From the IMG/VR virus record IMGVR_UViG_3300001149_000098: a stretch of DNA of 4,918 bases. One strand, 5' to 3'. The position numbers and the translations under genes were made by a program. This DNA comes from a virus. Its lineage: Duplodnaviria; Heunggongvirae; Uroviricota; Caudoviricetes. How positions within the stretch are numbered: position 1 is the stretch's first letter; each line of letters begins with the position of its first letter. Shown one piece after another: positions 2,247 through 4,448 of this stretch. Below the pieces are notes generated by a model. The model was not told where the DNA came from, did not search any database, and saw only the letters and a list, made by a program, of their open reading frames with translations.

Positions 2247-2303
2247 TACCAATAACGGCGAGTAAGTAGTACGCATCTTACCTCTTTTTTAGAGATAACC
2301 ATT

Positions 2304-2408
2304 ATGACAATAGAAAAACACGAAAGAAGCACTAAGGATTTGGTGAAAGCAGCAGTATCGGGATGGCTGGGCACTGCGCTTGAATTTATGGATTTCAAGA
2401 GTCATTAG
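2304..2408 (+). pseudogene. ydfJ: 5' fragment (34 codons) of an MFS-family transporter gene (ydfJ-like), truncated by prophage insertion
   Basis: ATG at 2304 with a weak purine-rich stretch upstream. Translation MTIEKHERSTKDLVKAAVSGWLGTALEFMDFKSH* contains the N-terminal motif typical of ProP/ShiA/KgtP-type metabolite:H+ symporters (..G..G...E..DF) and then stops at TAG 2406-2408, at the boundary with AT-rich prophage DNA. Synteny downstream of rspB matches the known Qin-interrupted ydfJ of E. coli K-12 (recalled, not searched). Confidence 0.6.
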
Positions 2409-2440
2409 TGTTAACTATTTGATAAATATTAAATTAATTT
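2395..2440. other. Predicted prophage-chromosome junction (att core region) between the ydfJ stub and the integrase 3' end
   Basis: The host-like transporter reading frame ends at 2408 and the integrase stop is at 2434-2436. The intervening DNA is strongly AT-rich (tgttaactatttgataaatattaaattaattttt) and contains an IHF-consensus-like 13-mer on the - strand (2412-2424). The exact core cannot be defined without the other prophage end. Confidence 0.45.
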
Positions 2441-3728
2441 TTCATTGCTTCGTTATGGGGCATGGTTGGGGCAAACTCGCTTAACTGTGTATTTAACAAA
2501 GCTACCTGTGCATTATTGTTTTCAGACATCCATTTTCCGTATACCTGAAATACCATTTGCGCATCTGCATGGCCCATCTGGTTTGCTATAAATGCCGGGT
2601 TAGCACCAGCTGTCAGCGACCAGCAGGCATAAGTATGTCTCGACTGATATGATTTTCGATGGCGGAGTCCGGCACGTTTTATCGCTGCGTCCCACATCTG
2701 CCTTATTGAGTCAACGGTAAAATGGTCACCATAATTTTTTACTCTCGCTGACACTTCAGGTTGAAAAACAAAGGTGCATTTTGTTTTTCTGTTCTGCCAT
2801 ACTCTCTGAGGTGAACATCAATGATATGCTCTTTGCTCAGTCTCGTTAATGTCATCTGACTCCGGAGAGCGTCGATTGCTGGCTTAATAAGATGAATGAC
2901 CCGATTGGTTCCCGCCTGTGTTTTTGGTACCGTGAAACGGTCTTTTGCTAAATTTCTCCTGATCATCATTGTTCCATTTTTCAGATCTATGTCCTCCCAT
3001 CCAAGTGCACACAGCTCACCAGGGCGAATGCCAGTATAAACAGAAACACACCATAAATTTTTTGCTTGCTGATTTCTGCACGCATCGATAAGACGGATAA
3101 ATTCCTCCCGCGAAAGAGGATCCGGAATGGTTCTTGATTCCTTTAATGGCGAGATCCCCTTAAACGGATTATCTGCCAGGTAACCGTTATCAACACCAAA
3201 CTGGAACACGGCGTTAAGATTTGTCATGTAATTATTTACAGTTACAGCCGATCTCCCTGGTTGTGTAACAATATAGTTACTTTTGGGGATCTGGTATCCA
3301 GTCAGTAGCTCTTTACGAACCTCCAGTAATTTTTCTTTATTAATCGATGAGGCAAGATTTTTTTCACCGATTATGCTCAGGATATTTTTGATGACGGCAC
3401 GGTATGTGTTGAGTGATGTTTTGGCGACTTCAGTTTCTTTTAGTGCCAGAAATTTTTCAGCCAGTTCTTTTATGGTTAAATCTTGTCGGGCCTCACCAAA
3501 TTTTTCCAGATTGCGTGAGGAGGGAAACTGTTTTGCATAGTCGAAAACACCAGTTTTTATTGCGTAACAAACAGAGGCGCGTAGTTCACCTGCAACGCGC
3601 CTGTTTTTTGCTGTGTCAGGAACCCCCAGATTTTCCCTGACTCTTACGCCTTTATAAACAAACCAGATACGTAATTTCCCTCCATGGTTTTCCACGCCTG
3701 TCGGATATTTCATTTCAACTTCTCTCAT
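2434..3728 (-). pseudogene. intQ: Phage tyrosine integrase (IntQ/IntR-like, N-terminal arm-binding domain), disrupted by a frameshift into 329-aa and 106-aa frames
   Basis: The 329-aa frame (2739..3728) has an N-terminal MKYPTGVE..GKLRIWF arm-binding-type motif, box I Arg (TGIRPGE) and the conserved Lys (PKTQAG). The 106-aa frame (2434..2754) has box II (SRHTYACW) and the His/Tyr nucleophile region (GHADAQMVFQVYGKW). The frames overlap at 2739-2754 and differ by one base. The shift must lie within 2742..2817 and probably sits in an A5 or T5 run (2764-2768 or 2784-2788 on the + strand). The start may be the second ATG at 3713 (MKYPTGVE), which has a better purine-rich stretch upstream. Confidence 0.85.
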
Positions 3729-3747: not shown

Positions 3748-3885
3748 TCAAGTAAGATGACGTCTTGGTCTCGCTGATGCCTGGCGCTCAATCCAGCGAT
3801 CAATTTCTTCCAGGTTGTAAAAGCATGGACTGTTATCCCATGGCATACCGTCATGAGCGACATGCTTATATTCCCTTCCTTCCAT
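3748..3885 (-). CDS. Excisionase-like small protein (DUF1233-type pattern); 45 aa from the first ATG, with the open frame extending upstream to 3966 without a canonical start
   Basis: Hand translation of the - strand gives MEGREYKHVAHDGMPWDNSPCFYNLEEIDRWIERQASARPRRHLT*, with stop TGA at 3748-3750, 19 nt upstream of the int start in the same orientation (classic xis-int arrangement). The W.EG.EY...DG...FYN.EEIDRWI pattern resembles putative excisionases. The same frame continues upstream as RHVSEEQLIALKGIKKGTLKKAREKSF with no ATG, GTG or TTG. Confidence 0.5.
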   Translation of the reverse strand: MEGREYKHVAHDGMPWDNSPCFYNLEEIDRWIERQASARPRRHLT

Positions 3886-3941
3886 AAACGATTTTTCCCG
3901 GGCCTTTTTTAACGTACCTTTTTTTATTCCTTTCAGCGCAA

Positions 3942-4448
3942 TTAACTGCTCTTCGGATACATGGCGTTAACTTCTGGCATTTTCATCAACGCTTCAACGA
4001 TATGTCCGTCGAATGTTGCCATGTCTTCCTGCAACAATTCCTGTGCGCTAATAACCATATCAACGGTGATGTTTTCACATGTGTCGAACTTAACCATGAC
4101 AGCGTTCTGTACTTCAGGGGCCAGCTTGTCAAAAGTGACGTTCATCGGATCGGATTCAGTCTCAACCGGGACAAAAGAAGCAGACTCCTCATCCCAGCGG
4201 TTTTCCTGCATATATTCAGCATCCCATGAATCGAGGGCAGGGCGGGGTATGCCAGGTTTATCCTCGCAGACAATAAATTTATAAGCGCAGTCCTGAGCAG
4301 CCGGATAATGTTCCAGGAACTGCCAGTGAAATTTTGCTCGAGCACGGCGTTCGTCGCCAGCTTCAATGGCTGTGGCTACAGCCACAGCGCCTTCTTCCCT
4401 TGTTGCCAGTTCGTCAGGAATAGCGGCGCAAATAAAGACTTTACTCAT
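3942..4448 (-). CDS. Highly acidic 168-aa prophage protein of unknown function (positional counterpart of Qin ydfE)
   Basis: ORF 3942..4448 with ATG at 4448-4446 preceded by GAGG about 9 nt upstream. Hand count gives about 32 Asp+Glu against 14 Lys+Arg, with no obvious transmembrane segment or catalytic motif. It lies between ydfD and the xis-like ORF, co-oriented with the dicB operon. Confidence 0.65.
   Translation of the reverse strand: MSKVFICAAIPDELATREEGAVAVATAIEAGDERRARAKFHWQFLEHYPAAQDCAYKFIVCEDKPGIPRPALDSWDAEYMQENRWDEESASFVPVETESDPMNVTFDKLAPEVQNAVMVKFDTCENITVDMVISAQELLQEDMATFDGHIVEALMKMPEVNAMYPKSS

Follow-up and report, generated by a model that had tools for sequence, protein, structure and literature searches.

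Qin and its relatives at ydfJ

The closest described counterpart of the locus is found in the chromosome of E. coli K-12 MG1655 (NC_000913.3 1632277..1652745). The K-12 record calls this element 'cryptic prophage Qin' and places ydfJ (b1543, the 3' part of the gene) at one end, and intQ (b1579, a pseudogene) together with ynfP (b4534, a CDS of 36 aa) at the other end, by rspB. ydfJ has been listed as the insertion site of Qin in strains W, K-12, B and Crooks (PMC3032704 Table 2), and several genome papers on STEC treat it as a standard prophage locus. The attP of a prophage residing in ydfJ has been found by PCR and was described as an '18- or 19-bp att sequence' (PMC8112680, S7 Fig). YnfP is among the small proteins that were detected by tagging (immunoblot) in K-12 (PMC6001520 Table 1). 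The presence of Qin in ydfJ of B strains, the att sequence and the translation of YnfP are already known, and the left end of Qin in ydfJ with its short 5' stub has been both annotated and published. A comparable case is the Rac prophage in ttcA, where integration is likewise site-specific and takes place in a protein-coding gene, close to its 5' end (PMC6379469). Known relatives of Qin also include the free temperate phages mEp460_ev081, Tritos, HannyBb and PhiR42_1 (45-49 kb).

The window, i.e. the whole stretch of 4,918 bases that was analysed, was 100% identical to and collinear with bases 1595421-1600338 (reverse strand) of E. coli BL21(DE3) (NC_012971.2), and the same was true for other BL21 derivatives. 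Its gene order was that of BL21(DE3): rspA-rspB-ydfJ'-int-xis'-exo'-ydfD-dicB. The host flank comprised rspA (1-1215, + strand), identified from the ORF listing and the BL21(DE3) annotation, and rspB (1227-2246, + strand), a Zn-dependent oxidoreductase gene with Pfam matches to ADH_N and ADH_zinc_N that is annotated as such and lies directly 5' of ydfJ. Past the ydfJ stub the reverse strand carried a tyrosine integrase gene in two frames, a truncated excisionase gene, an exonuclease remnant, ydfD and dicB. Pfam matches to DicB and DUF1482 (YdfD) were obtained, and the gene content was syntenic with K-12 Qin (int, xis, exo/ydfE, ydfD, dicB). Judged from these comparisons of sequence, positions 2304-2440 very probably represent attL (B-O-P') of Qin, a defective lambdoid prophage, in a chromosome of the E. 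coli B/BL21(DE3) type, a reading to which we give a probability of about 97%.

Qin of BL21 and Qin of K-12 are alike in the ydfJ site beside rspB, in the core, in the stub through residue 34, in the order int-xis-exo-ydfD-dicB and in having a defective integrase. They differ in the way the integrase was lost, since in K-12 an IS2 fragment cuts intQ short whereas int of BL21 carries a frameshift of one base. Moreover, the BL21 prophage has its own 2,095-bp deletion between xis and exo, an IS3 and other internal content, and measures 16.4 kb as opposed to 20.5 kb in K-12. The four free phages were 99.0-99.4% identical to the window over core, P' arm, int and xis. They possess an intact int (426 aa), an intact xis (83 aa), an exonuclease gene and full structural genes, whereas the copy in the window is a decayed remnant.

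The two parts of ydfJ

In the prophage-free strain MLI106K4 an intact ydfJ of 1,368 nt (455 aa) comes after rspB. The full-length product passes TIGR00883 (metabolite/H+ symporter, MHS-family MFS) with 462.9 bits, the cutoff being 443.45 bits, and the match extends over residues 23-418. Window 2251-2396 was 100% identical to MLI106K4 and was unrelated to it past nt 93 of ydfJ (window 2396). Identity to the prophage-free strain further indicated that the native rspB-ydfJ intergenic region (2247-2303) is retained together with the translation start signals of ydfJ.

A sequence-only reading of this DNA had recognised, immediately downstream of rspB, a + strand ORF of 34 codons starting at 2304 that looked like the N-terminus of a transporter and faced the 3' end of an integrase gene. 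Each of these elements proved to be real. The ORF (2304-2408, + strand) encodes MTIEKHERSTKDLVKAAVSGWLGTALEFMDFKSH, 34 codons followed by TAG, and is the orthologue of K-12 ynfP. Codons 1-31 (2304-2396) were base-for-base identical to intact ydfJ of prophage-free strains, so that the transporter in question is YdfJ, while codons 32-34 (KSH) and the stop codon (2406-2408) belong to the P' arm of the phage. The stop codon of the reverse-strand int gene lies at 2434-2436, as had been stated. When compared with Pfam the 34-aa peptide gave no match, being too short, and the stub was therefore assigned to ydfJ by DNA identity. It represents a fragment, not a functional member of the transporter family; by comparison with the intact protein it would contain no more than roughly one half of the first transmembrane helix.

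The attachment junction had been placed at about 2395-2440. The general location was right, but the position needs to be refined: identity to intact ydfJ stops at 2396, so the first phage-specific base is 2397, and the core shared with the other end of the prophage occupies 2386-2396, i.e. it lies at the low edge of the proposed range or just before it.

Comparison with the opposite boundary of the prophage in BL21(DE3), which had been proposed as a check, recovered the remainder of ydfJ. This part is separated from the stub by 16.4 kb, on the far side of pinQ-ydfK-ynfT, and matches intact ydfJ without a difference from nt 83 (L003 38755 onward), so that 11 bp are duplicated. The 3' part of ydfJ starts at Met29, within the core. 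On this attR side an in-frame TGA precedes Met29 by two codons, no promoter-like site was detected on the + strand within approximately 600 bp, and a terminator-like hairpin is located upstream. These three observations rule out the phage P arm as a source of a replacement N-terminus or of start signals, and because of them the 3' part, which lacks the first 28 codons, must be regarded as devoid of a promoter and a ribosome-binding site. As the TIGR00883 alignment of the intact protein starts at residue 23, the 3' part appears to have lost half of the first transmembrane segment as well. Expression of the downstream gene ydfI is probably also affected. Here the locus departs from that of Rac: whereas Rac alters the N-terminus of TtcA (PMC6379469), Qin, with its in-frame TGA, supplies no replacement N-terminus to ydfJ, which is consequently truncated and has lost its promoter. 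The junction explains why K-12 and B/BL21 are without a functional YdfJ transporter and probably without normal expression of ydfI. It also explains the annotated 'gene' of 34-36 aa (ynfP) beside rspB.

It might be thought that this 'gene' is more than a remnant, namely an independent small-protein gene kept for a function of its own. The K-12 record annotates it as a CDS, the tagged protein was seen by immunoblot in that strain, and the stub retains the native upstream region of ydfJ. Yet codons 1-31 of ydfJ account, base for base, for all but three of its 34 codons, and translation is expected of any fragment that has kept its start signals, so it does not reveal a function. Half a transmembrane helix is all that the peptide would contribute. 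Nor is the phage-derived tail conserved. Residues 1-34 of the stub are identical to K-12 YnfP, but two SNPs create an earlier stop in BL21, where the peptide ends two codons sooner (34 aa, KSH*) than in K-12 (36 aa, KSHAC*). Strain C shares the KSH* ending with BL21, and translation of the P' arm of mEp460 or Tritos would give a tail of approximately 11 residues (KSHTCQLFDKY*). We consider an independent gene very improbable. Slightly less probable still is the related proposal that a half helix with a strain-variable phage tail has gained a new function, or that the rspAB-ydfJ-ydfI sugar-acid locus is switched reversibly, as the phage enters and leaves ydfJ, in strains with intact phage relatives; beyond the published translation of YnfP there is nothing in support of either version. 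We thus retain the reading of the stub as the 5' remnant of ydfJ.

A scan for sigma-70 promoters and terminators around the stub, including the intergenic region 2247-2303, yielded neither a promoter-like nor a terminator-like site. This result is consistent with a co-transcription of ydfJ with rspAB.

The core and site-specific integration

attL follows intact ydfJ through nt 93 and attR follows it from nt 83. The overlap, nt 83-93, is TTATGGATTTC (window 2386-2396), an exact core of 11 bp that is common to attL, attR, attB and attP and that encodes F-M-D-F, codons 28-31 of YdfJ. If one single-base indel and one mismatch are allowed, the similarity extends to TGAATT(T)ATGGATTTC(C/A)AG (2381-2399), a sequence of 19 bp in the case of attB and of 18 bp in that of attP. 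These lengths agree with the att lengths reported for a ydfJ prophage (PMC8112680).

The attP sequences of the three phages that were read, Tritos, mEp460_ev081 and HannyBb, consist of the left arm of attR, the core and the right arm of attL. The bases on either side of the core are specific to the arms. To the left attL keeps the B-type TTT and attR has the P-type TT; to the right an A of the P' type is found in attL and a C of the B' type in attR. The strands were therefore exchanged within about 2388-2396. The exact points of cleavage are unreadable from sequence because the core is short and its 11 bp are exact. Since the set of sites expected from a recombination of attB with attP to attL and attR is complete, the sequences demonstrate that integration was site-specific.

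One alternative is that ydfJ was cut by an event that was not site-specific (a deletion, the insertion of an IS element or illegitimate recombination, for example) and that the adjacent prophage is there by coincidence. Other rearrangements have indeed occurred in the prophage, among them an IS3 insertion and deletions. However, the missing 3' part of ydfJ is situated exactly at the other end of the prophage with an overlap of 11 bp, a matching attP is present in free phages, and the same junction of rspB, stub and int was found in 2,701 of 5,426 complete E. coli genomes (50%). The comparison of attL, attR, attB and attP refutes this explanation, whose probability we regard as close to nil. 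The idea that the real target is a tRNA or small-RNA gene overlapping the region, as for many lambdoid phages, with the ORF being incidental, can be dismissed with the same confidence: ARAGORN found no tRNA or tmRNA in the window, and in unoccupied strains the intact site lies inside an annotated gene for a 455-aa transporter that scores above the TIGR00883 cutoff, as expected from the earlier claim of a protein-coding target.

Taken as site-specific integration into ydfJ, the history of the junction can be reconstructed as follows. A phage of the mEp460/Tritos type very probably integrated by means of its tyrosine integrase, attP recombining with attB in codons 28-31 of ydfJ and the exchange taking place inside TTATGGATTTC. 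ydfJ was thereby split. The 5' part kept 31 native codons and the native upstream signals and runs through three phage codons into a stop, whereas the 3' part, beginning at Met29, was left stranded, in BL21 now 16.4 kb away, with neither promoter nor ribosome-binding site and lacking the first 28 codons.

The uninterrupted attB was present in 2,010 of the 5,426 genomes (37%), and the remainder showed other states. With about half of the complete genomes occupied, ydfJ is a major prophage hotspot of E. coli, and in STEC prophage clusters and inversion endpoints are located at this gene. Because of this hotspot status exact core coordinates are useful for the calling of prophage boundaries. Such coordinates have already been published, and the importance of the present ones beyond correct annotation is small.

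A further junction was found in strain N96 (NZ_CM169999.1; L009 2501-2623), where the same integrase gene and P' arm are joined via TTTATGGATTTC to a truncated gene for a family-9 glycosyltransferase. This looks like an independent insertion at a secondary attachment site sharing the core. The reuse of TTTATGGATTTC in N96 backs the short sequence as a recognised core.

The core of Tritos attP reads TTATGCATTTC and differs by one mismatch from the ydfJ core, whereas the relatives of Tritos have TTATGGATTTC; the difference could stem from sequencing or be a heterology that is tolerated. Inspection by eye for inverted core-type Int half-sites around the overlap revealed a weak 3-bp symmetry (GAA...TTC) and no convincing pair.

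In the P arm of the Qin/mEp460 group a degenerate att-like sequence, TTGAATGATTTCCAG, is located approximately 200 bp to the left of the active core (L003 38492-38554 in BL21 attR; L006 1241-1303; L008 752-813). In records of Stx2a-converting phages, e.g. LC727848, the homologous flank directly abuts the core ATTTATGGATTTC. The comparison suggests that the P arm of the Qin lineage has acquired a module of approximately 200 bp, either by insertion or by duplication. The Stx2a-phage matches were also considered as a source of new information on the site itself and turned out to be just variant attP sequences with the same core.

The P' arm and the decay of the prophage

The P' arm begins with a non-coding stretch of 37 bp (2397-2433) that separates the core from the int stop codon and has a G+C content of 19%. 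The claim that DNA composition switches to AT-rich at the end of the stub holds for this local stretch. It does not hold for host and phage DNA in general, since int (43% G+C) hardly differs from rspB (45%) and ydfJ (47%), so that a general switch of composition at the junction is ruled out.

An IHF-like site had been noticed in the same interval, and it could be specified as an exact match to the consensus: TATCAAATAGTTA on the minus strand (2412-2424) agrees fully with WATCAANNNNTTR. It is the single match in the window, compared with 0.35 expected by chance, lies 16 bp from the core and is conserved in the attP sequences of the free phages. Its location corresponds to that of the H' site of lambda, and it is predicted to bind IHF.

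Two tandem TGGGGCA repeats spaced 11 bp apart (2456-2462 and 2467-2473, + strand) lie inside the 3' coding end of int and are candidate arm-type sites for Int. In the 4.4-kb phage locus all four matches to TGGGRCA fall into two tandem pairs on the same strand, each with the 11-bp spacing, that flank the core, one approximately 130 bp to its left and the other approximately 60 bp to its right; in BL21 the P-arm pair is found at L003 38618 and 38629. Four matches were reached in 7 of 200 shuffles, a figure that ignores their clustering, and the motif rests on these four copies. The P' arm next to the core would thus combine an H'-like IHF site with, probably, two tandem arm-type Int sites that overlap the 3' end of int.

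This layout resembles that of lambda in several respects. int adjoins attL, with its reading direction towards the site and with xis on its upstream side, and its product carries an arm-binding domain at the N-terminus. An IHF consensus is present in the P' arm near the core, and tandem direct repeats with helical spacing are found in the P' arm, with a further pair in the P arm. Since the integrase combines the arm-binding N-domain with a catalytic domain, a lambda-like intasome is expected. Core and target are different, however, the target in the window being located inside a coding sequence whereas that of lambda is the intergenic site between gal and bio. The candidate motif TGGGRCA is unrelated to that of lambda, and the candidate P' arm sites differ from those of lambda in overlapping the coding end of int.

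The 3' coding end of int contains yet another sequence related to the attachment site. Window 2504-2524 (L006 1623-1643) reads ACCTGTGCATTATTGTTTTCA and matches the core region of free-phage attP, ACCTGTGAATTATGGATTTCA, at 18 of 21 positions. It is in direct orientation at a distance of 127 bp, and none of 2000 shuffles reached such a match. This second core-like sequence may serve as a core-type site in an auxiliary role, or it may just be a relic.

The integrase gene (2434-3713, minus strand) is a pseudogene of the intQ type. A run of four T residues at 2779-2782 takes the place of five in the intact genes of Tritos, mEp460 and HannyBb, and the loss of one base in this homopolymer results in a -1 frameshift that splits int into the ORFs 2739-3728 and 2434-2754. 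RefSeq labels the BL21 gene 'frameshifted'. The domains of a tyrosine integrase can still be recognised: PF12167 (Arm-DNA-bind_2) was found with an E value of 4e-24, and PF00589 (Phage_integrase) matched both halves of the frameshifted gene.

The excisionase gene (3748-3942, minus strand; Pfam DUF1233, putative excisionase) has lost its 5' end and measures 195 nt in BL21, whereas strain C and the free phages have 252 nt. The loss is due to the 2,095-bp deletion of the BL21 lineage mentioned above, which took place between two 7-bp CGGATAC repeats (junction at 3954-3960) and has cost xis its first codons and the 2.5-kb exonuclease gene most of its length. The segment missing from genomes of the BL21 type is kept by REL606, ATCC 8739 and strain C. 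Further inside the prophage an IS3 is present. The remnant of 16.4 kb contrasts with the 45-49 kb of its intact relatives, and about two thirds of the ancestral genome of approximately 46 kb are gone. With int frameshifted and xis truncated, excision by means of its own genes is impossible for the BL21 prophage.
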